A DNA stretch of 63,661 bases, counting the filler, from Kipferlia bialata (Eukaryota), in the NCBI GenBank assembly GCA_003568945.1. It is 3 parts of 3 records of this genome, joined end to end, with 100 filler letters (N's around TTAATTAATTAA, not from the genome) between each part and the next. Parts side by side here need not be neighbours in the genome. Positions count along the whole stretch, not along the records: positions 1 to 24,932 come from BDIP01000216.1; 2 more parts are not named here. One strand, 5' to 3'. A program made the position numbers and the translations under genes. The notes beneath the pieces were generated by a model. The model was given only the letters and a program-made list of their open reading frames with translations. It was not told the origin of the DNA and ran no database searches. This document shows, one piece after another, positions 812 through 41,354 of this stretch. Position 1 is the stretch's first letter. The number at the start of each line of letters is the position of its first letter.

Positions 812-2370
812 ATGAAGCTTGCTCTTGCTGCTGTGCTCCTTGCTGTGCTCGTGGTCATTGAGGCCAGGGCCACCCACGGATTCGACCTCTCCTACTACCA
901 GGTACCCATTACCACCCATAACATTGCTTTAGTTGGCTTCTTGGCGTGTGTAGACCAGTTTGACAAATCCTGACCCTGACTCTCGTGTCGTGATTGAGGA
1001 CTGTATGTTAGCACTACTGACCTCAGGGAGACGTCTCCCAGTCCTCCTTCGACTGTCTGAAGAACGACGGCATGCAGTTCGCCATCTTCCAGGTATGAGT
1101 CAATCCCGCCCCATTTGTTACCTTTCCGCAGTGTTTGATGTAAACTTGATGTATGTCCTCTGCTTACGGCCCTTACTCCCACTTACCTCTAGGCCCAGAG
1201 GTCCAACGGAAAGTACAACTCCTACCTGAAGCACCAGTACGACCGCTCCGTCGCTGCCGGCATCAAGTGTACGTGTATGATTCATACTTCTGAGTCTACT
1301 ATCGTATTTCATTCTAAGCCAAATGCTGTCTTCTGACTCCAGACAACGACCACTACGTGTTCCCCGACACCAACAAGGACGCCAAGGTGATTTGGTCTGT
1401 CTGTATCCCTCTCCCTCTCTCTCTCTCTCTCTAATATTATATGTATCCCACTAACTTCAGTCCCAGATCAAGTCCACCATCGCCTCCATGAAGGCTGACG
1501 GTGTGCTCTCCAAGAACATGATCTGGGTGGATATCGAGAACACCGGTATGTATTACAGGGAGTATGAGTTATATGATGTCTGTTCCATTAATGTCTCTGT
1601 ATATCTCACCCCCAGACTACTGGTACAGCTCCCACTCCCAGAACATCCAGTTCCTCAAGGACTTCATCACTGAGGTATATCTTAGTATATACCATATGTT
1701 TAGACTGTGTACCTGGGCTCATTATTGTCTCTAGTCTCCATTTCATTCAGGTCAAGTCTTTGTTTTTGTGTGCCTCTCTCTATATATATGGACTATATCT
1801 AATCAGCTAGGCCAAGTCCCAGTACAGCTACTGCGGCACACTCTCTATATTATATAATAATGTCTTTGTATATATATATATATATATATTTATGGACTAT
1901 ATCTAATGTATCAGGCCAAGTCCCAGTGGAGCGTGTCTCTATATATATATATATGTATGAACTGTACTCTGTATCTTATGTATCAGGCCAAGTCCCAGTG
2001 GAGTGGCTGCGGCACACTCTCTATAATGTATTATAATGTCTTACTTAATTATATAGTTATGTATATGGACTATATCTAATCCCCCAGGCCAAGTCCCAGT
2101 GGAGCGGCTGCGGCACAGTCTCTATATTAGTGTCATTATATATACACATATATATATGTAAGGACTATATCTAATCACCTAGGCCAAGTCCCAGTGGAGT
2201 GGCTGCGGCAACAGGCACGGCTGCATCGGCATCTACACCTCCTCCTCCCAGTGGAGCGCCATCACCGGAGGCACCACCGTACGTAGAAGTCCCTCTCTCT
2301 CTCTCTTTCTTTCTCTCTCCTTTTCCCTCTCTCCTCCTCACCCCCAGGACTCCTTCTTCGCCAGACAATG

Positions 2371-3266: not shown

Positions 3267-5498
3267 ATGCGTACCTTGGCCCCCCTGGGACCCCTAGCGC
3301 TAGTGCTAGTAGCCATATGTGTATTGGCGGTATTGCTCCCTGCGGTTGATGCAAGGGGAGTGAGCTTCAAGCATGCCAAGCATGCCAAGTCTAAGAGTGT
3401 GGGCACAACAGGTATTGTGACCCAGACCAAAGAGGCCCCCACCCTGGCTGAGGGAGAGAGTGGCATTGTGTGGGAGGCTGTCCCAGAGAATGGAGCCCCA
3501 CCCGCAAGGTATCATGGCACTATACACACTGTATTATATATATAGTACATGTTGTATAAAATATGTATGCATATGTGTGTAGCGGGGGAAGCAGTGCCGC
3601 AGAGGGGGTAACCACGGCGCAGCCAATATCCTGGTTATGATTATATGTGGCGCATGTTATATGATCTCATATATATTTTTGTACATGTATATGATTTACA
3701 ATTGGTCAGCATGTAGTGTTGTAGTTGAAGTCTCACTCACTCTGTGGATCCAAGCTATGTATGGTTTGTTTCTTGCTATACTATCTTATCCCCCCCCCCC
3801 CTCCCCCCTAGTTTCCTTATATCCCCCTTGCTCATAGTTGCTGCTATTGGTATTCTCTCTCTTTCTCTCTCTCCCTCCCCACCACTCTCTCTCCATCAAC
3901 CCCCCCTTCACACGTCCATAATAGCTCTATATCCGTGGATCTCAGATCATCTCATTCTCTCTCCCCCATTCCATGTGTCCCCATTCTGACCCCCATAATC
4001 TGTCTATGATAGCGTATATGCTATACCTTCGGGCAGTGCTTGCATACCTGATGATGTGTATCTGGTATCTATTTATGATTCTGCGTGCCTCAGTATCCGT
4101 ATCTTTAATCATCTTCCATGACTTCCCTTTTCTGATCTCCAGGCGCTTAACCAACGTACAGTCATGTATATTAGTATTGTATTCCTCTCTCTGTGTATAT
4201 CCCTATATCCCTCTAGACTATCTATTCTGACCTCCATGCGCTTTGCCAACGTTCTATCATATATACTATTATTGTCTCCTCTCTCTCTTTTTATTTCATT
4301 ATATATCCCCCTAGACCATCTATTCTGACCCCCAGGCGCTATGCCAATGCCCTGCTCAAGGATGACGTGAGGGAGAGGTAGGACATGCATATATGTGTAT
4401 AGTGTACAATAGTTCTCACATTAAGTAATTCACTTAGATATGTATATATACTATGCCAATGCTCTGCTCAAGGATGACGTGAGGGAGAGGTAGGACATGC
4501 ATATATGTGTATAGTATACAATAGTTATCACATTTAGTGATTCACTGAGATATGTATGTGTACTATATGCCAATGCTCTGCTCAAGGATGACGTGAGGGA
4601 GAGGATACACACACACTCACACACACATACACACATACAATCATCTGCGTTTTCTGGGATAAGAAAGACACTTCCCTATATTGGTAATTAGTGGTAGTAG
4701 TTATGTATTCAGATGTATTTTGGGTTTCGGTTCCTCTCCCTCATTACTAAGTATAGGCTGATTGTCCTTGGTAGTACTGACAACATCAACTGTCTCTCTC
4801 TCTCTCTCTCTCTCTCTTCCCATCTGACTGTTTCTCATTCTCTCTACCCCCTTACAATAGGCTAATTGTCTTTGGTGGCACCGATACCATCAACTTCTAC
4901 TCTGACCTGTGGTTCTTCGACATACCCACCCAGATATGGCAGAAGGCTGCTGTTCTAGGTATATAGTTAATATTATAGTATAGTTAGAGTATAGTATAGT
5001 ATAGTTAGATCTGCAAGATGGTATATGAATTCATATTATGGTATATGTATGTAAATATGTTTTTCTTCGACATACCCACCCAGATCTGGCAGAAGGCTGC
5101 TGTGCTAGGTATATATATGTATCTATCTATCTATCTATATATATATATATGAGGAGAGAGAGAGAGACAGGGAGAGAGTACCCACCCAGATATGGCACAA
5201 TGCTGCCGTGCTTGGTATATATATATATATATATGTCTAAATTGATTCCATGGCAATTATATGGAGAGAAGTAGAGAGAGTGTGCCCACCCAGATAGGGG
5301 AGAAGGCAGTTGTGGTAGGTAGTATATATATATATATATGGATAGAGAGAGGGGGAGAGAGTACCTACCCAGATATGGCACAAGTGTACCCACCCAGATA
5401 GGGAAGAAGGCAGCTGTGGTAGGTGTTTTCAAGACTAGTGATAAGTGCTCTATGTACATATGTGCTGTACCCCCAGGCCGTGCTGCCCCAGTGGCATA

Positions 5499-5543
<45 letters not shown>

Positions 5544-6176
5544 CTAAACCTAGGCGCTGAGCCCCCGGGCCGTGCTGCCCCTGTAGCATTCCTAGACGGG
5601 GACAACATCTACGTTGGATTTGGGTTTCAGGTATATTCTTGTTAGATGATATGCGTATCCAACTTACGCACATAAGACGCACGTTTCAACTTTGATTCTA
5701 TTTGTCATTACATGTGTACACCTGACCTTCAGGACGATACCTTCTACTCCGACATGTGGATGATCAACCAGTATACATTATCTCTCTCTCTGTATATATT
5801 ATATATACATATTCATATATATATAATGTATAATATATTTAACCTAGTACCTTACTCCCAAGGATGACACCTTCTACTCCGATATGTGGATGCTCAACCA
5901 GGAGGAGATGATCTGGAACGAGGTCACCACAGACGTCTCACAACGTACGTCTACTATATACTTGACATTATTTCATTGTGTCGCTTGGTATTATTCTTAT
6001 ACATATATATAATACATAATGGATACCATAGTGTCTGTGGTCTGGAACGAGGTCACCACAGACGTCTCACAACAACGTACGTATCAGTTTCGTGATCTGT
6101 CACTCCGGCTCTCTCTCTACAACGTCTTATCTGACTGGTTGCAACGTGTTTTATGCCCAGTGTAGCTATTTATCTG

Positions 6177-6225
<49 letters not shown>

Positions 6226-6288
6226 CTAACACTAGGCTCCAATGTCTTCTATGCCCCTGTGGAGCACCCTGAGACACCTTTCTCTCTT

Positions 6289-6319
<31 letters not shown>

Positions 6320-7072
6320 CTCTTATTAACACCAGGCTCCAATGTCTTCTATGCCCCTGTTGAGCACCCCGACTGGGGCAACTGTCTGCTGATGTTTGGT
6401 GGGATGGTGGGGGACAGCGTGCTCAGAGGTATAGGACACACACACTCACACACGTCGCGTGTCTACCTCTGTTTCCTCTCTCTCTCTCTCTCTCTCTATC
6501 TGCCCCCTAACCCCAGACACCTACCTTTTTGTCCCATCTTCTCTCCCTCTCTCTCACTCTATCCTTATTCCAGACACCTACCTCTTCGAGCCATCCTCTG
6601 ACGGTGGTACCTTCCACTCCATAGACACCACAGAGGCCACAACACCACCCGCATGCAGTAACGGATGTGCAGTTAGCACAGGTATTGTATTGACTTGTTT
6701 GATGTATATTGCTTCAACCCTCACACGAGCTCTTGGCCTTATATGTAGGTATTGGATTATGATTTGAAAACTAACTATGAGGCAACACCGTGTACATGCA
6801 CGGTGGGTATGGTGGTCTGACTAACGAGGGGGAGGAGCTTGTGAACATTGAGACATTCAGGTTCAGGATAGAAGAGAATGGGGACATGGTGAGTATAGTA
6901 TGTATATATATATCCCCCCGATGTGAGTGTATTATAGTGTCCTGCAAATATAGTACTATATTTAGTATAATACTTACATTATGTACACTATATACCACTA
7001 ATTCTGGAACTGGACCTGTGTGGTCCACCCCCTATGTGAATGTATATATACTTCTAATCTAATGTTCTAATC

Positions 7073-7110
<38 letters not shown>

Positions 7111-7559
7111 ACTCATACTAGGACTGGACCTGTGTGTGGTCCACCCCCGATGTGAATGTATATACTCCCATATTATGCATAGTTATGCATAGTACATAAT
7201 AATATATATTTATCTCATTCTAGGACTGGACCTGTGTGTGGTCTGTCCCCGAGGACACCACTGGGGTACAGGTGCCACCTGGGGTGACAGGTACATATAT
7301 ATACAGTAGTATATATGTATGTATATCTATTTATATAGTGTTTACATGTATATATTTATGTATATCTATTTATATAGTGTTTACATGTATGGGTATATAG
7401 TTCACTGTGGTGCAGGTGCCACCTGGGTTTACAGGTGTGTATACATGAGAGTATACCATATATATCATTCTTAAGGATAGACCTTCTATCATTGTGTATC
7501 CTATCAATACATATTGACTCCAGACAAGTGCTGCTACCTGGACGTGACAATGTGTACAC

Positions 7560-7596
<37 letters not shown>

Positions 7597-9422
7597 CATC
7601 CTTCCTTACCATGTATCTCATCCCAGATCAGTGCTGATATATAAATGTGTATTGTACTATTATATATAAGTACATATCATATATAAGATATACATATGTA
7701 TAATAAGCCTCCCTTCTCACCCCAGACCAGTGCTGCTACCTGGACGAGGCAGGAGAGAACCTGCAAGTAGTCTTTGGCTGGCTCTCTTGGTCCGATGCCG
7801 ACTGGATGACTGACCTGTACTCTTTGTATCTGGATCCAACAGGTGTGTGTAGATAATAGTATATACCCATATGTATATATCCCATATGTATATCTAGAAA
7901 TTTTTTCGTGTAAGTGTATATGATTAAGTAGTAGTTTGTATGGTAGGTCAAGTATTGAATCACTGTAGTATAGTATTTCATTATAGTTGTTGATATATAT
8001 AGTTTGTGAATGGTCTCACACTACACTCTGACCCTGCCTCTGTCGTGTGGACCAAGACTTCTGGATGTGAATATTTATATATATATGTATTTTTGTATAT
8101 TTACATTTTCCGTCTCTCTTTCTTGTCCTATATATATATGAATGCATATATAGACTAACTGCAGACTCTGCCCCTGCCTCTGTGGTCTGGACCATGCAGG
8201 ATGCATTCATATATTGTAATATAGCTTATCTTAGTTTCTCTCTTTATATGGATAGATACTTCAGTACTGACTCTAGACTCTGCCCCTGCCTCTGTGGTAT
8301 GGACCAAGCAGGATACTTACACATCGACATGTTTTCATAGTCTCACTCTTGTATCTATGTATTTATATGCATACTAACTGTAGACTCTGCCCCTGCCTCT
8401 GTGGTGTGGACCAAGCAGGATGCAGGATGCAATATATGAAGTATAGTAATGCCTCTGTATTTGTATGCATACTCACTACAGATTCTAGCCCCTCCTCTGT
8501 GGTGTGGACCAAGCAGGATGCAGTTTTAGATAGACATTACTCTCTTTGTCTCTCAATGTCACTGTAGACTCTAACCCCTCCTCTGTGGTATGGACCAAGC
8601 AGGATGCAGACTTAGATAACGAGGACTCGGACGATGTGGTGTATGCAAGGTATAATATAATATTCCCATTTTGTCTCTTGATACATATCATCTAATGTAG
8701 TGTTCTCTCTAACCGATAGAGACTCTGTCCACATGATCACAGACCAGGGACACATATATATATCCATATCTCTCTTTATGCTATATACGTACATACATAT
8801 ATGTATGTATAAGTATGTATATACACTTACCCTCAGAGACTCTGCCCTCATGATCACAGACCAGGGGCGCGGCATAGTCTTTGGAGGTATCTATCTATAT
8901 ATATCTACATATATATATATATATATATATATTCATATTTATATTGTTCATATTTATATATATATATATATAAATATATATATACATCACCATCACAGAC
9001 CATGGGCGCGGCATAGTCTTTGGAGGTATCTATGGTCAATAAATAAGTATATTCATAAACGTATGTATATAAATGTTGTGTTTATGTGTATTTGTATACA
9101 ATGCCTCACTATCATACCAAGGACACAGAATAGTGTACGGAGGTATCAGTGGCATATGTATATATGTGTAAATTAATACATTTTCAGTGAGGGATATACT
9201 ATGTTATCGAGCCTGTTAGTATTATACTGTATGTACGTATGTATAACTATTTACACTCAGGCTGGGGTGAGGAGATTGACAACGACCTGCTCTACGTGTC
9301 TGCCCATGACCCATCCACACCTGGTGCCATAGCGGTGGATGAGATACACAGTGCATACGATGGGGTGCCAGGTATATTAGTGTACATGTATGTAATTTCA
9401 TGATTGTCTCTGTGGCTCATGC

Positions 9423-9463
<41 letters not shown>

Positions 9464-12400
9464 AATATATATATACATATATATCCTCCCTCTATTCTAA
9501 CCTCCAGCCCTTGTCTCTGTGGCCCATGCAACTAGTGGTGACTCCATATACGGGTTCGGAGGACAGACAGACGTGAGTACCTTGTTAATGTCCCGTTGGA
9601 AGTGTATATAGTGCATTGATTTGTATTTCAGAATTATATACAGTTAATTACTTACACACTAGTACAATGACGCCCTCAACACCTTCTTTGGATTCAACAC
9701 ATATATATATGTAGCACTATATGATATGTGTATAAGTATATACAATATTACAATACCCACACTTAACCATCCAGTATAACGATGCCCTCAACACCTTCTT
9801 CGGGTTCAACACAACGTCAAGCACGTGGTTCACACCATCGGCATCAGGTATCAGTATGGATAGTTTCTGTTTGTAGTGATCCTCTGTATATTTTTGTGCA
9901 GATATTTACAGGATTATGTGTTGTATATCATATATGTCGCTGATGTTAGGTGATCTTCCCCCCCTCTATGATGCCATGATGGAGTCCTGTATAATTGTAT
10001 TAGATCTAATATACTGTATGGATATATACACTAGTATATGCACATATACTTATTCTATTCCCCTTATCACAGGTGATCTGCCCCCCTCTAGATATGATGC
10101 CATGATGGAGTCATTTGGACCTGTGCTAGTGCTGTTTGGAGGCCAGGACGCAACAGGTACTGAGTGTAATACAATGTAGTATCCTATGTAGTTTAGTATA
10201 TACTCTGAACAATGAAATATTAATAACAGTGAGTCGTGTAAACTATTCACATATACATATATATAACTAATCCTCAGGTGGATTCCTCGATGACATGTAT
10301 GTGTACCACACATCGACAACACTCATGAAGCTGCTGGTGAGTGTATGTATATACATATTGTATTCCACATATACTCTTCACGAAAATGCTGTTGATTCCA
10401 TATGTGCTATTATCAGCTCTCATGCACTGATGGACGTCTCATGTATACTATCACTCATGCTCAGGAGACCGCCGGCACCCCTCCCTCTGCCAGGACATTC
10501 CTCATATGACCTCTATATACTATATACATTGCATTATATATATGTATTATGTATACTATATTATATATTATATCCCTATATATTCTCTCATATCCAGGAG
10601 ACCACCGGCACCCCTCCCTCTGCCAGGAGCTCAGCTGCCACAACCACAGTGGGTATGTACAGTGTAAACATATAGTACACCATATATATATATAGTATAC
10701 AGTGAATAGTAATATTCGCATATGTATATAGAGAGCCAGGAGTTTTTTTCAGCTGCCACAACAACAGTGGGTGAGTGCATTATATATATATTGTATACAG
10801 TGAATAGTAATATTCGCATATGTATATATATATAGCCAGGAGTTCAGCTGCCACAACAACAGTGGGTATGTATATGGAACATGTAGTATACAGTATATAT
10901 GTATATGCATTTATAGTATCTCTATGTCGTATATTTCTAGGGGCTCAGTTGCCACAACAACAGTGGGTATGTATTCATTGATATATAGACGTCGAATTAC
11001 TCTCTCTCTCTCTCTCTCTCAAACCCCAGGCGAGACCCTCTTCCTCCACGGTGGCCTGACCTCTGCCGGGGTGGATGGGGACCTATTCATGATCAACTAC
11101 ATTGATAAGGTATAGTGTGTATTCTCAATGTACTATGAATATATAAAGTGTTCTATAACTATATGATGGGAGGATGGAGACCTCTTCATGATCAACTACG
11201 AGTGCATTGATAGAGAAAGGAAGTATTACTCTTGATTTGTATGGAATGCATACATATTTGCAATACACTGATCCTAGATCTGGACCCCCCTGACCTCCCT
11301 TGAGACTGAAGGGTGCTCTCCCGTACTACGAACATCCCACAACATGGTGTTCATGCCAGATCCCAACAGTGATCCCGAGGAGACAAGTGAGTTACTATTG
11401 CAATGTCGCCGTCTCTCTCTCTTTCTATCTCCCCACGTCTCGTCATATCTCTCTATTCTCACATTCAGGCACATACTCTCTGTCTGATGGTGATCCATAT
11501 GTCCTCTCTCTCTCTCCCTTTGGATATGTGTGTTTGTATGTATGTATACATCACTCTCTTACCTTCAGGTACCTACTCGCTGTCTATATCAAGACAAGTG
11601 AGTAAGTATTCTCAAATACCGTTCTCTCTCTATGTATATACTAGTTACATATTAGATACATCAAACTCACATTCAGGTACCTACTCCCTGTCTGATGTAG
11701 ATGTGTACAAACAATCCCATTCTCTCTCTCGCTATTTATATGTATATCATTCTAATCTCTAGGCACCTACTCCCTGTCTGATGGTGATCTCTATGTCCTG
11801 TCTGGCCTGGACGAGAGTATGTGGCCGGTGGTGAGTGTATATATTAATATATACTAGTGTATATATTTATATATACATAGTATATGTTATTATAGTGCCT
11901 ATATTGTAGAAATATGAAATCTCTGTGGCAACGTGGATAAGAGGGTATATACATACATACTTCTCACCCGAGAACAGGAATGCATCTTCAATGCCGGTAT
12001 CAGACACACACAACAACACTCATATACATGCATGTACATGTAGCTGTGTAGGAAAGTGCATGTGTAAATCTAACCCCAGAATGGTATCTTCAAGGCAGTG
12101 ATCGACCTGGATGCAGAGACTGTGTGCTGGCAGGTAATGATGATATAGTGCAATTACTTAAGCGTGTGATTAGTATGGTATTTAGACTTACCATCAGACC
12201 TAGGACGACCCCGATGACTACTCTCTCTCTCTATACATACATTTACTGATGGTGCAAATACTATTCATTAGTGCTATATAGAATAGTCTGACACCTAGCA
12301 CGTTCAATATATTTATATATATATATATATATATATTACTATATGATTATATTCTGACACCTAGCACGTGGACGACCCCGATGACGTTGCCCCAGCATAT

Positions 12401-15400
12401 GCAGCTGCACCCGCCGCAGTGATAGGTATAGATATTATATATACATATTTAACATATCTGCCGCAGAATAGGTGGGTTTACAGTGCTCAATATAGTAGTA
12501 GGACATAGAGATAGTGTAAATCTCTCTCTGTCTCTCTGGTCCTCTCTATCTCCACCTCTCTCTGACTCTCTCCCCCTCTCACCTAGGCTCTAGGGTCCTG
12601 TCCACTGGCGGGTCAGGCACAGAGATGAGATCAGAGCCCGGTACGTGACCAAGTGTACGCGATATGTATATATATATTGACACATAAAGAAGGTTACCAA
12701 CATCGCCTGTGGCCTCTATATATATGTTTCATACAAATGTCGTCTGTTGTTAACTTCAGGTATCATTAAGGTTGCCGACTTTGCCCCTGGCCCTGACACC
12801 CCATCTCTGACTGAACTGGCACTGGAGGGAGATACAATGGAGAGGAACAGAATGTCATACATGACGGTATGTAGTGGCAAATACACACACACATATATAT
12901 ACATAGAGAGAGAGAGAGAGATTGTCTGATGAACTGGCACTGGAGAGGAGGTCATACATGACGGTATGTTCTGATGCACTGACTATATTCTATTGTCTAA
13001 GTGATGTTAGTAGATGCATTTTGTACTTATACTCACCCCCAGGGCATGGCCGGCACCTACTATTAACCTATCCTCTGTCCAATATCAGTACATAGTGTAT
13101 ATAAACATGTATCACTCTATACCCTCACCCCCAGGGCATGGCTGGTACCCAATTGATCACCCTGGGTGGGTATCTGGTCAACACAGCAACATCGCCACAG
13201 GTACATATTTATAGATACATACACACACACATATATATAGATGGATAGATAGATGGATACATAGATGGATATGGATATATGGGTATCTGGTCAACACAGC
13301 CACAGGTACCGTGATATAGATTGATATATATGAATATATATAGTGGTATATCTGGTGAACACACCAAAATCGCCACAGGTATATATATGTAGGTACATAA
13401 GGAGTAACAGTTACACTCTTGTCCTCCATCTTACCTTAGGGCAAGAAGGTGCCCTCTGTGTGGGTGACTGACCTATCCCCCATATGTACAGGGGATGGGT
13501 CAGATGACGAGGGGTGCTACCCTTGTACAAAGTGAGTGCACAATATATATATGTGTGTATATATATGTGTGAATATATATAGTGTATAATACACCTGGTC
13601 CCATATGCACAGGGGATGGGTCAGATGACGAGGGGTGCTACCCATGTACAAAGTGAGTATATTAGTATATATGGGTGTACATATATATGTNNNNNNNNNN
13701 NNNNNNNNNNNNNNNNNNNNNNNNNNNNNNNNNNNNNNNNNNNNNNNNNNNNNNNNNNNNNNNNNNNNNNNNNNNNNNNNTATGTACAGGGGATGTGTCA
13801 GATGACGAGGGATGCTACCCATGTACAAAGTGAGTGTATCTACAGGTGTAGTATATTGGTGTATTATTCATACTCCTAACCCCAGGGGTACTGTCTACTC
13901 CTCCGAGACTGGCCAGTGCGAGGCATGTGCAGCTGGGTCATACGCAGCACAGGTAATGTGTACATATATACATATATAGTTTATGTACGGAGTATATAGA
14001 TAGAGTATAATGTGTATGTGAATGTGAGGCATGTACAGCTGGGTCATACGCTGCTCAGGTATTATATAGATGTAGATATACACATAATGTACATATATAC
14101 AAATGGTATTAGTATATAGAAAGTGTATAGTATATATATGAATGTGAGGCATGTGCAGCTTGGGCCCACGCAGCACAGGTATACTATACTTAAATTTAAG
14201 CATAATTAGTGTATATGTATTTACCCTTTAGTGAAATATATTGCACTTCAGGACCTCGTCAAAAGTTCAATCATTGTAATTGATTGAGTTCTAACACATA
14301 CACTGATTGATTCTTGAGGCTAACACTTCAGGACGGCCTGTCTGAGTGCACTGCCTGTCCCATGGGTTTCTACAACCCATACACACACGCAGAGAGCAGG
14401 TGAGTGTAGATGAATATATACCTACATATATATAAATGTATATTCAATACTACCCATACACACACGCAGAGAGCAGGTACATTGATATTTACGATATATT
14501 GACATAGGCGTATTACGCAATGCAATAGCATACCATACACAAAAATATCTTGGGCAAGTGGGCGTATATATATATATCCCTCCGGACCCTCTGTTTTGCT
14601 TGCCCCTCTCTCTCTCTATACTCTCTATACTCTATACTCTTTACTATACACATCTTCAGAATTACTACCTATATATATTTGTAATACATATGGGATTATC
14701 CTACACATTAGTGACCTCAGGATCTTCTGCTTTGCCTGCCCCTCTGGTACCTACATGTATACATACATATATATATACCCATATATCACCCACATATTAC
14801 TAGTATATATATATCCCATTGTGTATAACTCCAGGATCTTCTGCTTTGCCTGTCCCTCTGGTACTTACAACGATGAGATAGGCCAGGCAGAGTGCAAGAC
14901 GTGTTGGGACGGTATGTGTACAAACATATATACACTATATATGCATTGATAGAAGAGTGGGATTATTGTATACATGAGCATGTATGAGATAGGCCTGGCA
15001 GAGTGCAAGGCGTGTTGGGGTGGTACGTATCGGTATATACATTCAGTATTTGTGTGGACACACACACATATATATATATATATAGAAGAGTATGATGGGA
15101 AATACATTATACTTCGGTTTATACTATATTAGCCTTACCCCAGGCTACACCTGCCCTGTTGCCAGCATCACCCCCTCTGAGTCTGACTCTGACACAGACA
15201 CAGTGGTGTCTGTAACACCTGAGCCTCTGGAGGTATATATAGTACATACCTACAAGTATATGTGTCGAATAGTGTATGTATATATACCCTCTGAGTCTGA
15301 CTCTGACACGGATACGGTGGTGTCTGTAACACCCCTTCCCCTAGAGGTATGCTATACATATATATGTATATATATATAGTACATATAGAGAGAGATATGT

Positions 15401-16912
15401 AAGTATATACCCTCTGACTCTGACACGGATACAGTGGTGTCAGTCACACCAGAGCCACTAGAGATACAAATGTACAGTATACATATACCAGTATGAGTGT
15501 ATTCTTGTATTCTTGTATTCTCGTTGCAGTATCATGACTCTGTTTGACCTGTGACATATATTGACTTCTATTGACTTCTAGGTTGACCAGGACAAGGTTG
15601 ACCGGTACCTTAAGCTCCTGTACATCATTCTGGGGGGCATCTGTGCCTCTGGACTTCTAGGTACTACTCTTTCTCTCTCTCTGTTTCTATCCCTTTCTCT
15701 GTTTCGTTCTCACTACATTACTGATCTGTGGCAACAAGGCCCACTCTCTCTCTCTCTCTCTCTCCCTCTCTCTCTTTCTCTATACATCCTTATATTTACA
15801 TATATGTATATTATTACATGTATGTGTGTGTTTGTACGTATTCGTTAACATGCGTACTATCTTTAACTTACACTTATTCTTTACATATTTAGTCTCTGAC
15901 CCCAGTCTCTCTCTCTCCCTCTTTAGGTCATTCTCTCTCTCTCTCTTCTGACCCCAGTTCTTATCTGTGGCAAGACCCACCTGATCAAGAAGATTGATCT
16001 CTTTGCTTTGAACTATGTCTTCACCGTACCAGCAACACTGGGGTGAGTACTCTCAGTGTATACAGTGTATATATATATTGGACTATATATATGTATATAT
16101 TGGTATAGTATATATAGATATATTGGAAATACTCCATTCGCCACGCCAATAGTCATTATATATATACATATATATATATATGTGTGTGTGTGTGCGTTCA
16201 TTCATATGGAAGTGTGAAGAAGAGTAGTATTGATTAATAATACCAGGAGTATGACGACCTGGATCGGCGGCTTCATCTGTTACTCTATAAATACAGAGTA
16301 CATGTATTCAATGTGTTTTACTATCCCTAACCATCAGCTCTAAGACCACCTGGATAGGAGGCTTCTTCTCAGCTGTCTTCATCTGTTCCTTTGTTGTCAT
16401 GGGCTCTGGTCTGGTCATACCCTACCTCTACACAAACATATCAGAGGATAGGGGTCTGGTGCCTCTGTGTCTGGCCTCTACAGTGCTAACTGGCAATATG
16501 ACAGGTACTATACAAATAGTGTATAGTATATGAATATATCGGAGGACAGGTGACTAGTATCCCTTCGATTAGCATCGACGAGCTAGTATGGTGATACCAC
16601 CTCGCTTTCCCTGCATCTCTCTCACTCCCTTATCATACTTGACATGTCCTTCACTGGTCTCTATCTGCATCTCTCCCCATATATATAAGGATATATGTAT
16701 ATATATATATGTATATATTAATAACCCCTTAGTTGACATGGCCTTCACTGGTCAGTTCGATGACTATTCTCTCTCTTCCTCTCTCTCTCTCCCTCTCTCT
16801 CTCTCTCTCTCCCTTTCCATCTATATATACATGTTTGTATCTAACCCCTTAGTTGACATGGCCTTCACTAGTCAATTTGATGACTGTTCTATAAATCTCT
16901 CATCCATATATA

Positions 16913-16946
<34 letters not shown>

Positions 16947-18667
16947 ACCCTCCAGTTGACATGGCCTTCACTGGTCAGTTTGATGACTGTGCCCTGATAG
17001 CCGATGGGGAGTATGGCACATGCTCATCAGATGTGACAGGTACAGGATTGTTATGTTTGAGTATAGCATGAATAATAATATGTGTAGTTGGTATCTCAAG
17101 TAGATGCGTATTTGTATGTCTCACCGTCAGTGACTGCCCCACCTTGACATCCACAATGTATAAGTAGTTATGTATGGATATCGATATTAGTAATGTGTAT
17201 CCTGATGTAGAATACTAGTCTCCTGTCTCACCCTCAGTGACTGTCCCCAGTGACATCAACACTGGGGGTGTGTACACACAGACATGCATGCAGGTGAGTA
17301 GATGATAGGCATATATATAATAGTATTATATACAATATTGTAGACGCATATATTGTAACACACAGACATGCATGCAGGTCAGTTCAAGGAACCCTAAGTT
17401 ATAGTATATGAATATGTATACTGGTGAGGCTTGTATGTGTCTCACTGAGCAACAAACACGAGGCTCTTTCTCTTCCTCTCTTACCCTCAGTCCTCCCTTG
17501 CCTCTGGGACAGCTGACACTACGGCATGTGCAGTCAGAGGTATGGTATCGTATCTATTTTGTTGCCATTATCCACGTCCTCTAATCCCATTGGTGAGTGT
17601 ACTTCTATATTTCGTGTTTATAAGAGAATACTGTGTATTTCGTGTCCACTCATCCTCAGTCGAGATCCAGGACGCCTTGTTGTCCAGCAGAGATTGTATT
17701 ATATTTATATGTCTATATACAGTATATATAAATATGAATAGTGTATCTAATCCTCAGTCGAGATCCAGGATGCCCTGTTGTCCAGCAGAGAGTCCGAGTT
17801 CAGTCTGCAGATTCTGGGGTCGGGGGAGTACTTCGCTTCAGCTATAGGTACGGAAAAGTGTTTGTATGGTGTTGTAAGAATATAGTAGCTATATGTATAC
17901 AGATTATTATTATTTTATTTGTTATTCACTGTAGAGTAACCCCACATGTGTTCTAATATACTCTGTTATATAAATATTTGTTATATAGTACTTCTTACCT
18001 TCAGACTGGGAGGTATCCTCCAATGCATCCAACCCTGGCCAGATATCGAGGTATGTGTATATATATATGTATTGTATTATACTTATATATATATATGCAA
18101 CATTACTATCCTTGCCCCATCTCTAGGTATAGTTACGCGATTCAGTGTCCGGCGGCGGATATGTACGTATATTTACGAAGGTAATTGTACCCCTCCCACA
18201 CCAGCATTGGTGGCACCCTCCTGCCCTACACCGGCATGACATTCAGAGGCACAACGACACCGACAGAGGTACATATAGGAGACGATATATATGTATTCAT
18301 ATGAGAGTACATTGATACTATTCTTAGGTAATCTTTATCCAATCCTCTTTGACCCCCAAGGTATGTAACTTCCTCTCCACCGAATCCTTGTATGACACAG
18401 CAGTACTTGTATATATGTTCAACAGAATTACTAGTGTCCAAAATCTAGATTGGCCTCTTCTCCACCGAGTCCATGTATGACATAGTAACACTGTATCATT
18501 CACACTAAGCTGCTTATATTCTTGTGTAACTCTTCAATAGTCCAGAATATGTCCCCTTACCCATTAGATTGGCCTGTTCTCCACCGAGTCCATGTATGAC
18601 ATTGAGTATGAGGACGAGGGGGAGGACAACCCAAGCACGGGAAGGATCTTTGAGGTATATATATAAG

Positions 18668-18704
<37 letters not shown>

Positions 18705-20319
18705 TGTACTTGATATTCGAGGTATGGACCCTCTGACTCTCTCTCTCTTTTGCTTTCTCTATGTCTTTTCATTTCATCAGTCCATCGAGAATTCGTTGTG
18801 TTTCATTGTATATATATATATGTTTCTTTGTGTGGGTGGTATGGTGTGTGAATGTGGATGTCTCTATGTATACAACAGTATTGTGTTAACCTCTCACCAT
18901 CCAGTTCATTGGCTATGAGAGGGGTACCATGGTTAGCAACGTGGACTTCCACGACGAGAACGGAGTCAGGTAGAGTATGGTTGTATATGTGTACATTAGG
19001 GATTTGAGCTATCTTTGTAATATCGTTACATATGGATAGGTCCAACAAGAGGTGGTTATGCGGTGGTATATATGTTATGCTCTTACCCCCAGTGTCACCT
19101 TCATCCTGGAGAGGAGTGGGGGTTTCCATCTTAGCAGTAACACATATACATGTATTCACTGAATACATATATAGTGTCTGCACTCTCTCTTTTTACTCTT
19201 ACATCAGCGTCACCTTCATCCTGGAGAGGAGTGGGAGTATCCCTTTAAGGAGTAGCGCTTATATATCATAGTTATCATATACTCTCTGTATGAACTGTGT
19301 TACTCTTACCCCAGCGTCACTTTCATCCTGGAGAGGAGTGAGAACGTCCTGTCCTGGAGCAGAAGCATCGTACGTATCATGTCCTGCTCTCTCTCTCTCT
19401 CTCTATATATATACTTATATATATTACTCTCCCTGTATGTTCATATGGTTTATATATCTCACCTCTAGGTCCAAAACCCAGCCGCCTTCGCAGCTGCAAT
19501 CCTTGGTTCATACACTGGTCTCCAGGGTGAGTGGATATATATCATATATTTACCTATATTACATTGGTCTCCAGGGTGAGAGTATATATAGCTACACCCA
19601 AGTACGTATGTGCTCCAGTACAATGTAATTGTAGTCTATCTAGGCTCACCCCCAGGGTCTGGTATTCATGTATTGTGTATCAATATGTAAATGAAAGAAT
19701 ATGCAACAATACGTTATGATACTCACCCCCAGGCATGTTTGGGTCTGGTGTTGGGTATGTCCGCACTGTGTGGGGCTGGGCCAAGGGCAGGTATGTATGT
19801 ATATGTACTATTAGGATTAATACATTCAAGTCGTAATTATCATGAACCTCTCTCACCCCCAGGTGGGGCAAGGAGAAGCTCCAGAAGAAGCTGGCCAGAG
19901 TGCACACCAAGAGCAGCAGAGAGCAGGTACCACTTCTATGGATATCCTTATATCTCTACCCATTCATCAACATACTATGTATTGTATTAATACTATCATT
20001 GTATATGTGTTAACACACCAAGAGCAGCAGAGGCGAGCAGGTGCGTAAGCATGATACCTCCATATATATCTTCAATCGAACTATTCTCCATTCATTAGTA
20101 TATACATACGCATATATAATAGTGTATTTTTGTGTATATATACATTGAGAGCAGCAGAGGCGAGCAGGTGCGCATATGCACACATCCTATCTCCATATCC
20201 CATTCATTCAGATATTGATACATCCTTCCCACGTACGTGATCTATTAGCTCATCCTCAGGTCCCAGCTGGGCCGGGTTACATCAACCCACTGGGAGTAGT
20301 CCCCACTGCAACCGTGTAG
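3267..20319 (+). CDS. Large secreted/membrane protein: signal peptide, many Kelch repeats, Cys-rich ephrin-receptor/GCC2-GCC3-like repeats, then several TM segments
   Basis: Signal peptide MRTLAPLGPLALVLVAICVLAVLLPAVDA. Kelch exons include RLIVFGGTDTINFYSDLWFFDIPTQIW, LLMFGGMVGD, VYMHGGYGG, LVLFGGQD and LFLHGGLT. Cys-rich exons include CEACAAGSYAAQ, CTACPMGFYNP, CFACPSGTYNDEIGQAECKTCWDGYTCP. TM exons are LLYIILGGICASGLL, WIGGFFSAVFICSFVVMGSGLVIPYL and AAFAAAILGSYTGLQGMFG. The last exon is VPAGPGYINPLGVVPTATV*. Not every internal junction was verified. Confidence 0.8.
8017..8610 (+). repeat. Six tandem acceptor/exon-start copies (ACTCTGCCCCTGCCTCTGTGGT..GGACCAAGCAGGA) in a Kelch-gene intron
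   Basis: Copies near 8023, 8165, 8277, 8384 and 8482; the real exon starts near 8568 (DSNPSSVVWTKQDADLDNEDSDDV). Confidence 0.88.
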
Positions 20320-20647: not shown

Positions 20648-22594
20648 TTACTCCTTCTTCTCCTCCTCCTTCTTCTCGTCCTTCGTCATGGAGTCAAGGA
20701 TGGTCTGAATATAAGGGTGTAGAGGGGGAGAGAGAGAGAGAGAGAGGAGACCGCTGTGATACCTGGAGGGCAGTCTTGACGTTGCCAGTGGCGGGTCCCT
20801 TGGGGAACCTGTGGGGTAAGCGAGGACATAAAGAGAGACAGGGGAATACTTCTGGATACCACACAATATACATGATATATACACACCTGAGGAGGTATGA
20901 CTTTGGCAGGTTGTCCTTCTTCTTGTCGGCCTCCTTCTCTCCCTCCTCCTTCTTCTCCTCCTTCTTGTCGTCATCACCTGGGGTGAGGTTGGTGTATATA
21001 ACACATGCACTGTCGAATACAGTACATAAGAATATATATATATTTGTATATATACACAGTACCTGGCATGGGGACTGCTGCTGCATAGTTGACCAGGGCC
21101 AGCTGCACAAAGTTACCCTCCCTGTCGCCTAGAGTGAGAAGAGAAGCATGTCAAAAGAGACTGGGATATGTAAGATATCCGTATAGAGAAGATATCATTG
21201 CATATATCTTGAGAGAGAGAGATAGAGCCATGTACCTAGGGACAGGGATGCTGTGATGGGAGCATTGAGGACAAGCACACCGGTCCTCTCACGCCTGGGG
21301 TGAGAAGGGGAGAGAATTTACACAAATGGGTTGCAGCACTTAACAATCAGAGACAAACGAAAGAATTCTTAGGATCACCATCCTTTAACGCAAGAGCGCA
21401 AATATATACAAGAATAATATTATGTACTAATATGTATACACTCAACCATACCTGAACACCAGTCTGCCACCCTCGCCCTCCTCGGCCTTGTTGACCTGGG
21501 GGTCAGGGGGAGATGGTATAAATGATAACATNNNNNNNNNNNNNNNNNNNNNNNNNNNNNNNNNNNNNNNNNNNNNNNNNNNNNNNNNNNNNNNNNNNNN
21601 NNNNNTATGTAAGTAAAGAGAGTCCTCCTCGGCCTTGTTGACCTGGGGGTCAGGGGGAGAGAAGATCTATATATTCAATGCATATAAATAATATACACAA
21701 TAAGTATAACACACCTTGAGGGTACCGGTTCCCAGCTCCACCCACTGGCCTGACTCCCCAATGGCATAGCACTTGGCACGCTCGGAGGCCATGGCCTTCT
21801 CTCCCTCCTGGGGGTTGGACGTACGGTGGAGGGAGGGTCATATATATAGTAAAGTATAATAGAAATAGCAGATATTTATGAAGTATATCAGCATACCTCG
21901 CCAGTGGCCACTACCACAATGGCACATAATACACACACACACACATATATATATACATATATACATACACACCTCTCCTGTGGCCACTGCCACGATGGGT
22001 GCCTTGGCCTTGGGCTTCTCGGGCGAGGCAGGCTTCTGGAGGTGAGGGGTGACATATACAATACACATATATATGAACCTATCATTCTGCTTCCACACAC
22101 TTCAACCATATCCTGCTCGTTCTCTCATGTATTCATATCTTATATATACCTCCTCCTCCTTGGTCTCCTCCTTCTCAGTGTTCTATATATACATTTATAC
22201 ATATATATATATATGTGTGTGAGTGTATAATCTACCTATCCACATATATATCTATCCATATATGGTATATACCTCCTCCTCCTTGGCCTCCTCCTTCTTC
22301 TCAGTGTTCCATGCGGCAGGGGGCTTGAACTTGAAGTCACCTGGGGTTATACAACATATCATACCATATCTACTACTACATATTATATATACAAGTGGGA
22401 ATATATATGTATTATTAATTATACCTGTGCCGAATGCAAAGGAGTAGTCTGGCTTAGACATCTACTAATACAGAGTATATATAGAGTAAATGCAGTGTAC
22501 ATATATATATATATCCTAACCTGTGCCGAATGCAAAGGAGTAGTCTGGCTTAGACATCTACTAATACACAGTACATATAGAGTAAATGCAGCGC

Positions 22595-24931: not shown

Positions 24932-25032
24932 ANNNNNNNNNNNNNNNNNNNNNNNNNNNNNNNNNNNNNNNNNNNNTTAATTAATTAANNNNNNNNNNNN
25001 NNNNNNNNNNNNNNNNNNNNNNNNNNNNNNNN
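24932..25032. other. Artificial contig-join linker (N-run, TTAATTAATTAA, N-run)
   Basis: A six-frame-stop 12-mer flanked by Ns; genes on both sides are truncated. Confidence 0.95.
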
Positions 25033-27236: not shown

Positions 27237-27685
27237 GTGTACATCTGGTACAATAAGGGTGTAGAGGGAGAGAGAGAGAGAGTATATACCTGGCACAAAT
27301 GACAGACACTGGGGCTTGGTGTTGAGGCTGAGGGCAGCTATGCATGTGCCCTGGGCCACGTTCCAGATACGCACACGCCTGGTATTAAGGGTGTAGAGGG
27401 TAAAGAGGGTGTAGAGAGTATTAAGGGTGTAGAGGGTATCAACGGTGTAGAGGGTATTAAGGGTGTAGAGGGTATTAAGGGTGTAGAGGGTATCAAGGGT
27501 GTAGAGGGTATTAACAAGAGTGCACATAAGTGTGCTGTGTAGAGAGATACTGGGAGCATATATGCAGTGAAATACCTGTCGAATCCAGCTGTGGCCAGTC
27601 TGGTGCCACCTCTCTCTCTCTCTCTCTCTCTGTATATATATATATATAAATATACCTGTCGAATCCAGCTGTGGCCAGTCTGGTA

Positions 27686-32242: not shown

Positions 32243-34872
32243 CCTTGACACCAGTGTCCTCCAATTAATGAGAAAAGGGGCTAGAGGGGGAGAGAGAGAA
32301 TGCAAAACACCCATATGCCAATCTCCTTCTCCCTCGCCTTGTCTCTCTCTCTCGAAAACGCCAATTCTCAAATAGATATTTCCATTGCTGTTGATAACGA
32401 TTCAATATATATACATATTTATATATATATACCTTCTCGCCAGTCTCCTTCTCCCTCCGCCTCTTCTTGGCAACCTGACGCCTGGCCTGATTGTGAGATA
32501 TGCACACATCAGATATACATACACATATATACTCACCTGGTTACGCACTCCCTCTGTGAACAGGAACTCTCTCTCTCTCTCTCTCTATCATATAGCATAT
32601 ATATTAATATATATATATATGTATAGTACATACACTATATACTCACCTGATTGCGCACTCCCTCTGTGAACAGCAATACTCTCTCTCTCTCTCTCTCTCC
32701 ATATATATATATATATAATATTAATATATATACAAACATATGTATTTATACCTGGTTGCGCACTCCCTCTGTGAACAGGAACTCTCTCTCTCTCTCCCCC
32801 CCCCCCCTCCCCCCTTCCCTCTCTTTCAATATTCACATATATATAAACAATTGTATATATGTGTATAGTACATATACGAACCTGGTTGCGCACTCCCTCT
32901 GTGAACAGGAACTCTGCCTGTGCGTCCTGAAATAAGGGTGTAGAGAGAGAGAGAGAGACAGACGCACCCATACAACAATACCCATAAATACACACATTAA
33001 TATTCATATTCTCCCATACCTTGACGTGCTTGGCCACCACTGCGTGCTTGGCATGGGTGACAGAGGCAGCATAGCCTGGTATTAAGGGTGTAGAGAGAGA
33101 GAGAGAGAGAGAGTAGGCATGGGTGACAGAGGCAGCATAGCCTGGAAATAAGGGTGTAGAGAGAGAGAGATGGAGAGAGAGTGCACATGGGTGACACAAG
33201 CAGCAACTACACACACACACACACATATATATATCTACAATACTAATTTTACCTGATCAAAGAAGGGATTGAGATATATATACCCTACTTGCCGTCTGCA
33301 TGTTCACAGGGTTGACCTCCTCTATATATATATACAATACTATATAATGTGCATATATAGGTATATAGGTGAATACTATCTCTGACCTGCTGTCTGCATT
33401 TTCAAGGGGTTCACCTCCTCCTGCACCACGGCCAATATACTATCAATATCTATATACTACACTTAACACATACTCGTATTTATATACATATAGTATATAT
33501 CATTTCCCTACCTGCCGTCTGCACATTGAGTGGATTGACCTCCTCCTGCACCACAGCAAGGTGGCATATATATATTATATACTATATACACTATATATAA
33601 TAATACACCATACTCAATACAGCTGATGATAAGGGCCTAGCGAGGGAGAGAGCTATATATTACCTGCCGTCTGCATATTGAGTGGATTGACCTCCTCCTG
33701 CACCACGGCCAGATGGCATATATACTATATACTATTTAATTATTATTTAATTATTATTTAATTTACTATATATACTATATACCTAACACATATATGTATG
33801 TATACATATAGTGTATACATACCTGCTGTCTGCATATTGAGTGGATTGACCTCCTCCTGCACCACAGCCAGATGGCCAACAGGTGCATATATACTATATA
33901 CACTATATATACTACACTATATACATATACACATAGTATCTATATACCTGCTGTCTGCATGTTCAAAGGGTTCACCTCCTCCTGCACCACAGCCAGGTGG
34001 CACAGATACTATATATACTACACTACATACTATATGCATATACAGCTGATGTTAAGGGTCTAGAGAGGGGGAGAGAGAGAATACCTGCTGTCTGCATGTT
34101 CAAGGGGTTCACCTCCTCCTGCACCACAGCCAGGTGGCCAACAGGCACGTTGATGGCGCCACTCGCAATGAGCTTCTCTCTGGTGTTAGAGAGAGAGATA
34201 GAGAGACAGAGAGAGAGAGACAGGTACGTTGATGGCGCCACTCGCAATGAGCTTCTCCCTAGGGTTAGAGGAAGAGAGAGATAGATAGATAGAGAGATAG
34301 AGAGAGAGGCACAGTGATGGCGCCACTCGCAATGAGCTTCTCCCTAGGGTTAGACATATACATACAGGCAAATATATATATAAGGAGAGAGAGAGAGAGA
34401 GAGAATCACAATGAGCTTCTCCCTGTAGTGTTAGAGGAAGAGGCGAGAGAGACTATCTGTTGTATTAGAGAGAACGGAAGCCTATGGGGAAGACCGGGAG
34501 CTTCTCCCCTGTATGAGAGAGACAGGGATAGATTGCGGGAGAAAGAGGAGCATCAATAATAGTTGCGCTTGCAATCAACGGACGGACACAGACGGAGAGA
34601 GAGAGAGAGAGAGAGTACTAGAGGGGGGGGGGGGGGAGGTATATACATTATCTATTCACTACTAGTCTAAGTCAATATGTCAACAGCATACAAATATGTC
34701 ACAACGTGAGATATGACAGAAAACGTCATTGGTGATATGCAGTAGAGACTGCTAGATGCAACAGAGACACCCAACTCACGTACAGGATGCAGTCGAACAC
34801 GGATCTGATGGCTGGATCGTTCCGTCTGATGTTGCCAACCTCCTCGCAGACACGGCATTGGATGCTCCCCAT
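25146..34872 (-). CDS. PRP17: Pre-mRNA-processing factor 17 / CDC40 (WD40 splicing factor), 3'-truncated at the contig end
   Basis: Spliced segments INVPVGHLAVVQEEVNPLNMQTA, AEFLFTEGVRNQ, YSEWHNPAQYKALGRTYTQVP and ATVPRHCCHTWVNAHPKGVSALVWAPKSGHMFVSGGMDGKVKLWD parallel CDC40 (GPENPF; F.FEQQRR; YDYQGRSY; LPKK.IH.W.GHTKGVS). Further WD40 exons: CIRTFHGHTRPITS, WSEDGTRLATAGFDRRVRIWN, HFVTSAEDKQLVMWE. The start codon at 34872 is tentative. Confidence 0.82.
27383..27512 (+). repeat. About 7 copies of an 18-nt minisatellite (TATTAAGGGTGTAGAGGG) in a PRP17 intron
   Basis: Direct repeats visible at 27383-27512; they produce the spurious TLYTLN ORF. Confidence 0.9.
33286..34140 (-). repeat. About 7 tandem copies of an exon 3' end plus donor (EEVNPLNMQTA|GT) in a PRP17 intron
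   Basis: Real donor near 34084; copies end near 33948, 33823, 33664, 33511, 33387 and 33290. Confidence 0.88.
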
Positions 34873-37273: not shown

Positions 37274-37643
37274 GGGGTTGTCAGTGTATTTGTCCCCAGG
37301 CTGAGCTCTGACAATGTGTGAGAGAGATCAGTCCTTTTGGGTATATTGTTTCATAAGAGTGTGTGCGTGTGTGCTGTGTATAGATACATCAGGTTTCATT
37401 TATTGTGGTCTCCTGGCATATTGAGCACATATCCCCTACACCTTCTGTTCAACGAGGGAGACGATGTAGATGAAAATTCACAATCCTGTGTTTCTACCTC
37501 CGATGCATCGGCGTGACAAGCATCAGTATTGAGTATGAGTATTGACTACGGACAGCTGTCTGCTGGGAAATGGGCCATCTCAGTGACAGAAGCCTTAGCA
37601 CTGTCTCTGGTTACTATAATACGGTGGTCTACCCATTCCGTCC

Positions 37644-39666: not shown

Positions 39667-41354
39667 TGGCTATGGCTACTCCGTCAATGTGGATGTAGAC
39701 GATGGAGTGGATGACGAGACATACGGCAGGATGTTCAAGCCCATCCTCCAGTCATGCATAGACCACTACAGGTATTATATAGATAGATAGTCTTGCATAC
39801 GTTAATACATGGGTAGTACGTATTTATATATTTGTATATATTTATGTAGAATACATTTGTTGGTATGTTCAAGCCCATCCTCCAGTCATGCATAGACCAC
39901 TACAGGTACGATATATATGGATGTATATATATATATATATATATATAGATGGACAGTCTTCCATCAGTCATGCATAGACCACTACAGGTAAAATATAATA
40001 CAAGTCAATATATACCTCATGCATTTGTGATGCATTTGTGATGCAGCGTAGTGATGTCCTCTCTCTCTCTCTCTCTACACCCTTAATGTGAATCTCACTC
40101 CCAGACCCTCTGCCATTGTGATGCAGTGCGGTGCTGTCGTCTCTCTCTCTCTCTCTCTACACCCTTAGCGTGTATCTCACCCCCAGACCCTCTGCCATTG
40201 TGATGCAGTGTGGTTATGTTCTCTCTCTCTCTCTCTGCTCCCTTTATGAATTCCTCACCCCCAGGCCCTCTGCCATTGTGATGCAGTGTGGTGCTGACTC
40301 TCTCTCTCTCTCTCTCTACACATTTACTATATGTCTCACCCCCAGGCCCTCTGCCATTGTGATGCTGTTCTCTCTCTCTCTCTCTCTCTCTACATATACA
40401 CATTTACTATAGTCTCACCCCCAGACCCTCTGCCATTGTGATGCAGTGTGGTGCTGACTCTCTGGCCAATGACAGGTACGAGGCACTCTCAGATATACTA
40501 TATATATATATGTAAATATATATATATATGCATATATGTGCCGTCAGTGATATACTCCCTGGCCAATGACAGGTACGGGGCATGTTATATCGTAATTCGT
40601 TATTTCAATACTATGTACGTATCATAACGTCACCCGTGATAGTATAATTGCACAGAGATTGAGGTGGAGAATGGTAACTCGATATATTCATACATGTTCT
40701 GTTGTTGTCCTCTTCCATGTTACATATCATTCATATACCTCTATATATACTGATGCCTCTCACCCCAGACTTGGCTCCTTCAACCTGACCCTCAACGGGC
40801 ACGGGGACTGTGTGCAGGTTTGTTACAGATACATCTATTTGTTACTGACATGTATATATGCCAGTGTTCCTCCCCTTTTTCGCCATGTCAGTTTCACCCA
40901 CATACCCCCCCCCCCCTCTCTCTCTCTATGTATATACCTCTCACCCTCTAGACCGTTGCCTCCTATGGCCTCCCCACCCTCTCTCTCCCTCTTTCTCTCT
41001 CTCTATCTGTCTCCCTCTCTCCACCCCCCTCGCCTCTTTTACCCATATAATCACCATACCCTTATCCCGTCTCACCCTCTAGACCGTTGCCTCCTATGGC
41101 CTGCCCACCCTGTTCCTGGGAGGGGGAGGGTACACTCCAAGGTATATATATGTATATACTACCAATAACTAGTGATGACAGTTGTAAATAGCATTGTACT
41201 CACGCCACACTATTGTCATCAGCAAGTCTTTGTCGTGTTACTCTCTCTATATATATCTTTCTCTTTAGATGTATACGTATCTGCACGCATCTTACACCCC
41301 AGGAATGTGTCCAAGTGCTGGACCTACGAGACCGCCCTCCTTGCTGGCACCCAG

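Follow-up and report, generated by a model that had tools for sequence, protein, structure and literature searches.

Introduction

Tandem duplicates of exon-intron boundaries, called mirages, are described in amphioxus for Adh3, the globins BflGb6 and BflGb9, troponin C and PGBD5 (excerpts of PMC3087553 and PMC3902484). According to these excerpts, the duplicates lie on the donor or on the acceptor side, mostly keep GT or AG and are apparently ignored by splicing. Their turnover is thought to occur via unequal crossing-over, and they show concerted evolution with 81-100% identity. Introns have been proposed to arise by internal gene duplication (Rogers; Gao and Lynch 2009, as cited in the excerpt of PMC3087553). 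Mirages have so far been treated as duplication debris, their origin being unclear. Here we describe exon-edge copies in introns of Kipferlia bialata, a free-living fornicate flagellate in which 87 of 174 spliceosomal proteins are reportedly retained (excerpt of PMC6679479). All tests were performed on one stretch of 63,661 nucleotides from a single assembly (the window), and the starting observation was made in intron 31 of a Kelch gene, KIPB_001496. As in amphioxus, the copies span the boundary, are arranged head-to-tail on donor and acceptor sides and mostly keep GT or AG. It is well supported by the data that these copies are former working exon edges, and that copy and resident edge both diverged while working.

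Copies of the exon 31 end differ from it mainly at synonymous sites

A 55-residue exon of the window matched with 100% identity a single protein, P0001, corresponding to KIPB_001496. P0001 has Kelch and ephrin-receptor-like Cys-rich domains (Pfam), so that an earlier reading of the DNA alone (the original prediction) was right in labelling the locus a Kelch gene. The following features were used.

3267..20319, plus strand: host gene KIPB_001496 (P0001), Kelch/ephrin-receptor-like Cys-rich membrane protein, 47 exons mapped from P0001
15144..15232, plus strand: exon 31, the resident annotated exon (P0001 mapping), its final 60 nt being the parent sequence of the copies
15233..15581, plus strand: intron 31 (GT...AG; P0001 mapping), with TA-rich spacers separating the copies
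15287..15350, plus strand: nearer copy of the exon 31 end (alignment), 60 exonic nt and an intact GT
15410..15465, plus strand: farther copy of the exon 31 end (alignment; alignable from 15413), dead donor AT
15582..15660, plus strand: exon 32, the downstream exon (P0001 mapping)

The end of exon 31 (15194-15232, from ACA GAC ACA to CCT CTG GAG; TDTVVSVTPEPLE) is followed by GT. With the frame set by P0001, a public protein, the copy at 15425-15463 departs from this end at 7 of 39 nt. All seven differences are third-position and synonymous, and AT instead of GT follows. Re-reading against the exon end thus confirmed what had been reported for this copy, synonymous-only changes and a dead donor. 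Over 51 nt, the farther copy carries 7 synonymous differences and none that changes an amino acid. The nearer copy (15308-15346; its alignment extends back to 15287) carries six synonymous differences and one GAG>CTT change (E>L) in front of an intact GT; by eye, no branch point or acceptor was seen at its free end. The longest exact matches of the two copies to the parent are 23 and 14 nt.

Seven synonymous differences out of seven have a chance of 3-7e-5 if a neutral copy is compared with a frozen exon, and of 0.004 if the exon also drifts synonymously. A probability of 0.004 among the 138 copies of the window would suit ordinary tandem duplication debris, that is, a neutral copy, a constrained exon and a lucky example. 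Because the observation could be a picked case, the synonymous excess was tested window-wide.

Exon-edge copies in the window

The gene set comprised 12 genes with 185 introns: the Kelch gene modelled via P0001, with one exon start shifted by 15 nt in frame, seven genes curated by hand from our own parse and four left as parsed. Each exon edge was locally aligned with its own intron, and the middle stringency is reported. This gave 138 copies in 68 of the 185 introns and none in five control pairings; the other two stringencies gave 145 and 132 copies. The copies form 85 families of 1-6 members, placed head-to-tail in the adjoining intron. The junction is reached by 64 of the 67 donor copies and by 68 of the 71 acceptor copies, and GT or AG is kept in 60/64 and 60/68 of these, respectively. 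With a median exonic length of 30 nt, the copies are half-exons. In each of 57 pairs of a donor and an acceptor copy, the donor copy comes first. A flank could be aligned in 17 of 129 copies, the majority sharing exon core and splice signal only. TA/CT microsatellites make up 0.22 of the bases in copy-bearing introns versus 0.05, and a microsatellite lies at most 14 nt from the free end in 80 of 138 copies (57 expected).

The host Kelch gene contains 62 copies, in 34 of its 46 introns. Names of the other genes (WD40 Prp17/CDC40-like, lysozyme-like, histone-deacetylase-like) are our unconfirmed assumptions from their translations, and seven single exons from non-Kelch genes had no Pfam match. 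Four further arrays are referred to below.

8016..8532, plus strand: five acceptor-side copies, comprising branch point, AG and exon start, upstream of Kelch-gene exon 11 (alignment)
33286..34001, minus strand: six donor-side copies in the presumed Prp17/CDC40-like WD40 gene (alignment)
1793..2115, plus strand: four acceptor-side copies in the presumed lysozyme-like gene; few differences, synonymous excess absent
39865..40368, plus strand: two donor-side and five acceptor-side copies in the presumed histone-deacetylase-like gene; few differences, synonymous excess absent

The gene presumed to encode a lysozyme-like secreted protein (812-2848) has a GC3 of 0.91; its copies are low in synonymous divergence, as strong codon bias would give. 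Copies were found in 50 of 65 introns of the Kelch and WD40 genes. None was found in the four genes left as parsed, and four genes at 35413-39542 and 53212-61295, with short microsatellite-poor introns, have copies in 0 of 65 introns. The Kipferlia genome seems to have two intron regimes. Assembly gaps fall within copy arrays at 13691-13780, 21532-21605 and 26797-26866. The near-identical copies beside gaps (6 of 138) may be scaffolding duplicates, and added few differences.

A coding imprint on the copies

Over 1359 codons, mismatches between copies and exons numbered 62, 59 and 197 at codon positions 1, 2 and 3. For all copies, the proportion of differing synonymous sites (pS) was 0.198 and that of non-synonymous sites (pN) 0.043, giving pN/pS of about 0.22 (family bootstrap 0.16-0.30). 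The corresponding rate ratio (dN/dS) was 0.19, ranging from 0.16 to 0.23 over the three alignment stringencies. pN/pS was 0.23 without intron 31 and 0.25 when copies were compared with copies. In the two genes that hold 108 of the 138 copies, the ratio was 0.19 and 0.13. Amino-acid changes account for 137 of 322 differences; the purely synonymous pattern holds for the copy at 15425-15463, not for the class.

The original prediction had expected mostly amino-acid-changing differences in neutrally decaying copies, with dN/dS near 1 as the value that would speak against it. The value measured in this window is not near 1. That expectation was nevertheless too generous, since the exon also drifts at silent sites and a fair null is about 0.5. 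Indeed, a neutral copy beside a constrained exon, passed through the same alignment pipeline, gave pN/pS of 0.44-0.49. The observed excess of synonymous changes persisted for unique changes per family (143.5 synonymous to 122.5 non-synonymous, P=5.5e-9 against a ratio of 0.5) and for the nearest copy only (85 independent copies, 97:71, P=1.8e-8). Private changes of the exon were 15:0 (synonymous:non-synonymous), three-state sites 6:0 and variants private to the inner copy 21:20 (P=9e-5 against neutrality).

Technical causes were considered. Passage of the null through the same pipeline rules out alignment bias, and the two wrong frames, with pN/pS of 2.14 and 1.57, rule out a frame error. After stratification by base and context, fourfold sites still differed 4.1-4.9 times more often than non-degenerate sites, and the fourfold-site spectrum was symmetric (GC>AT 49, AT>GC 42); mutation bias is ruled out by both.

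Duplication debris fits the presumed lysozyme-like and histone-deacetylase-like genes. It places the ratio at 0.44-0.49 instead of the observed 0.22, a model with k fixed at 2 loses 15 log-likelihood units on the 85 independent copies, and the step at the junction described below is left unexplained. For this window it is rejected, its probability being negligible.

The splice signals of the copies changed and stayed strong

Divergence from the resident edge is stepped: 3-7% at GT/AG, 4% at amino-acid sites, 20% at synonymous sites and 41% at adjacent intron bases, as in an allele comparison. At the junction flanks, 42% of donor positions +3 to +6 (n=256) and 41% of acceptor positions -3 to -8 (n=408) differ, as compared to 56-58% between unrelated introns. 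The step is also present in copies devoid of amino-acid changes. Plain in-place ageing at 4% predicts about 8% at these flanks.

Signal scores of copies and real sites were 1.60 and 1.23 for donors, and 3.35 and 3.84 for acceptors. Simulated change without selection led to -0.30 (donor) and -0.61 (acceptor), and none of 401 runs matched the score of the copies (60 donors, 59 acceptors). The branch-point motif is kept in 52 of 59 acceptor copies. Since the signals changed at 40% of positions and yet stayed strong, each copy's signal changed under selection to work. Together with a pN/pS of about 0.2, below the null, this bears out the earlier claim that both versions diverged while coding.

Side observations on splicing were also made. 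The decoy scored at least as high as the real site for 37 of 60 donors and 27 of 60 acceptors. The public gene model P0001, which is a prediction, uses the first donor and the last acceptor and no copy site; such a choice among strong decoys would point to exon definition in a reduced spliceosome. An unconstrained gene parse called many copies as micro-exons. In 148 of 185 introns the last 20 nt contain a branch-point-like motif, near AG as in diplomonads. Many WD40-gene acceptors carry a near-identical ACACCCTTA-type stretch, at times tandemly repeated (27380-27520, 28710-28960).

Decay of the copies after a coding phase

Strong signals despite 40% change, GT/AG kept and scoring like real sites, and an exon-like core far better preserved than the flanks could all reflect selection acting on the copies now, as splice sites, as alternative coding edges or through conversion into the exon often enough for bad copies to be purged, the reservoir of the original prediction. 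The amino-acid changes argue otherwise. The 97 single-base changes were no more conservative than random (BLOSUM -0.53 versus -0.61 expected, P=0.33), and 9 of 57 changes fell on residues invariant in four paralogs, where 20% are expected, so that these residues are not spared. Two stop codons were present versus 4.5 expected. Of 13 indels, 8 break the frame; the five in-frame ones (donor copies 5/7, acceptor copies 0/6) make no overall excess. Loss of GT/AG, at 3-7%, equals the pN level, half-exon copies have no partner site, and no copy is used in the public gene model. Within-lineage conversion, when simulated, gave ratios of 0.52-0.62. We regard present selection as unlikely. As half-exons with out-of-frame indels and stops, the copies are not tandem mutually exclusive exons either. 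Of the proposal that the intron is an archive of exon variants, the fossil record finds support and the maintained reservoir does not.

An age series is seen within families. At shared sites, the nearest and farthest copies differ from the exon at 34 and 47 synonymous, and at 12 and 35 non-synonymous positions (Fisher P=0.045 one-sided, 0.085 two-sided), i.e. far/near ratios of 1.38 and 2.9. The pattern looks like a protein-filtered offset of about 0.13-0.15 that a copy has from birth, to which some 0.04 of neutral decay was added. The selection imprint combined with unselected-looking amino-acid changes therefore indicates a long coding phase followed by a short decay. Per-copy pS and pN correlate with rho 0.06; a shared-clock model predicts merely 0.09-0.10 and the test has no power. 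At 8016-8532, three of five copies read A at N352 of the exon, A being the residue of two paralogs. Overall, 6 of 57 changes match a paralog where 5.9 are expected, giving no evidence of ancestral residues in copies.

Origin of the copies

A chromosome has one working edge at a time. Therefore, two units that both diverged under selection would have sat on different chromosomes. We consider it probable that the copies in intron 31, and the window-wide class, derive from working edges of other alleles of the same gene, brought in by inter-allelic recombination or repair. Of the options in the original prediction, that the copies are alleles appears to fit best.

In the mechanism that we propose, a misaligned homologue would serve as template for the repair of breaks or slippage in TA/CT-rich introns, and some 30 nt of its exon edge would be added together with its own intron end. 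Duplications across one junction would be tolerated because splicing uses the first donor and the last acceptor, which would need exon definition. At birth the copy would already show the inter-allele distance, with differences at some 13-15% of synonymous sites and some 40% of the intron bases that flank the junction. It would then decay neutrally (about 4%) and be either pushed away from the exon or lost. On this view the copies would now be functionless by-products.

Simulations were compared with these values. Within a single lineage, 19 settings with duplication, unequal exchange, conversion and promotion gave ratios of 0.49-0.83, save three fast-promotion settings (0.25-0.46) with pS of 0.045-0.084. 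In none of the 19 did pS near 0.19 occur with pN near 0.04, which speaks against the earlier suggestion that copies cycle in and out of the functional position within one chromosome lineage. In a population toy model, run three times at each of 11 settings, the ratio was 0.53 when recombination was absent. With crossing-over allowed between edge and array, it was 0.22-0.31 at theta 0.05-0.2 and 0.73 at theta 0.02. With inter-allelic birth at theta 0.15 the model yielded pS 0.20, pN 0.04 and far/near ratios of 1.43 and 3.2, near the observed values.

Several points weigh against an allelic origin. It needs very high diversity in K. bialata, and no second allele was seen, the P0001 cluster having one member; a metagenome scan with P0001 gave 101 pattern matches, 0 confirmed. 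Sexual or parasexual processes are unobserved in Metamonada (excerpt of PMC8516963). The signal comes mainly from the two genes with 108 of 138 copies; no synonymous excess is seen in the presumed lysozyme-like (3:5) and histone-deacetylase-like (3:6) genes, and that of a RanBP-like gene (7:9) is not significant. Synonymous counts are Poisson-like, with a dispersion of 1.0 versus 1.07-1.85 in toy allelic runs. A shared fast clock (k about 4.6) and an allelic offset are not told apart by likelihood. The most favourable single functional path per family leaves 16:47 changes off the path (ratio 0.9), in a test that is biased to that outcome and uncalibrated. Therefore, the data also fit snapshots taken along one lineage.

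In such a history, tandem duplicates would record the then-resident edge, and at its free positions the working edge would evolve 3-4 times faster than the copies, through RNA-templated repair that makes errors, through selection for being unlike the copies, or because change in the copies is slowed. The neutral-looking changes off the best-case path, the 15:0 exon-private changes, the fit of the shared clock and graded series in some arrays (8016-8532) all agree with it. The rise from nearest to farthest copy, 1.4-fold for synonymous and 2.9-fold for non-synonymous changes, does not, nor do the 21:20 variants private to inner copies. The 41% change in intron bases adjoining GT/AG is out of reach of an mRNA template, and each copy has its own good signal. 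The spectrum has no direction. At 33286-34001 two copy types are interleaved, one of them with five consecutive recoded synonymous codons (VNPLN), including TTG>CTC. One-lineage snapshots are, to our judgement, quite improbable.

The donors could also be paralogs or another lineage (an old hybrid), or the tandem layout could result from mis-assembled haplotypes or strains. Four paralogs exist in Kipferlia (P0002-P0005), of the Kelch/Cys-rich membrane type and with 46-53% identity over the C-terminal half, and six copies lie in introns with N gaps. At the copied residues, paralogs show 44-47% identity, compared with 90% (569 of 634 codons) for the copies. No shorter relative of P0001 residues 800-940 was found, and none of 15 protein matches was a full-region relative outside Kipferlia. 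An exact match to the parent of at least 55 nt occurs in 0 of 138 copies. Copies begin mid-exon behind intron-like DNA, unlike any working allele, and three states at 6 synonymous sites require more than two sources. Mis-assembly thus appears unlikely, and this whole set of sources is very improbable; a hybrid source is here indistinguishable from very divergent alleles.

Fornicates have two Dmc1 paralogs and lack Rad51A, and metamonads lack non-homologous end joining (NHEJ) and keep meiotic genes (excerpt of PMC8516963). Dmc1 stabilises mismatched joints (excerpt of PMC6719624). A recombination repertoire of the Dmc1 type may drive the copying. It is conceivable, and we hold it tentatively, that genome-wide thousands of copies are allele pieces acquired by mismatch-tolerant Dmc1 recombination. 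One genome would then hold a population sample that records synonymous diversity above 10%. It would also attest recombination between homologues, as sex or parasex, in a metamonad, and the choice of true sites among equally strong decoys through exon definition by a reduced spliceosome.

The imprint of selection on protein and splice signal says that each copy once worked as an edge, for which another chromosome is the simplest place. If the allelic origin is true, allelic diversity and recombination become readable from one assembly, and the copies may be a trace of sex in a group in which it is unseen (excerpt of PMC8516963). With 120 decoy sites that equal real ones in strength, the window offers a natural assay of how a reduced spliceosome chooses splice sites; the decoys also mislead gene finders.

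The window and its gene models

The window consists of three blocks of eukaryotic DNA dense in introns. N runs flanking a TTAATTAATTAA spacer occupy 24933-25032 and 49791-49890. Because three separate scaffolds are joined, neighbours across these positions are unlinked. In exon 5 of the Kelch gene (5848-5863), the public model starts at 5848; an upstream copy and a branch-point motif suggest an acceptor (AAG) 15 nt later, in frame. A 3.5-kb intron-free open reading frame with Ig/filamin-like repeats (by eye) lies at 46311-49790 in intron-dense surroundings; joining it to upstream exons gave no open frame.

Relation to known systems

A literature search, in which many journals were not covered, returned no report of such copies in Kipferlia or of synonymous bias in mirages. 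Neither the overview section of the species genome paper nor the excerpt of PMC6679479 mentions such copies. The layout is that of the known mirages; what is new, as far as the literature was searched, is that such repeats bear an imprint of coding and splicing, and this in a metamonad protist. In contrast with amphioxus, copies occur here in a protist and in 68 of 185 introns, and the units are mostly not clean tandem repeats, exon core and signal being alignable and the flank in 17 of 129. Synonymous bias, selected divergence of splice signals and an allelic origin are absent from the mirage descriptions in the excerpts of PMC3087553 and PMC3902484. The internal gene duplications cited there are likewise short, intragenic and equipped with splice signals; the Kipferlia copies lie inside existing introns and are not seen to create a new one. 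Animal mirages are open to the same coding and splice-signal test.

At human GC-rich minisatellites, Jeffreys and colleagues reportedly observed inter-allelic polar transfer of repeats. The likeness is in the proposed mode only, units being added at one end of the array from the other allele. The Kipferlia units differ in being half-exons that have been coding in the past and are spaced by variable microsatellites, and they are known from sequence, not from mutation events. In antigenic variation, silent cassettes, which are unexpressed partial coding copies, feed the expressed locus by conversion and favour amino-acid diversity. The Kipferlia copies resemble them in being partial coding sequences, presumably unexpressed, with a related locus that is expressed; in contrast, their differences are mostly silent, their genes are housekeeping-like and the copies decay.

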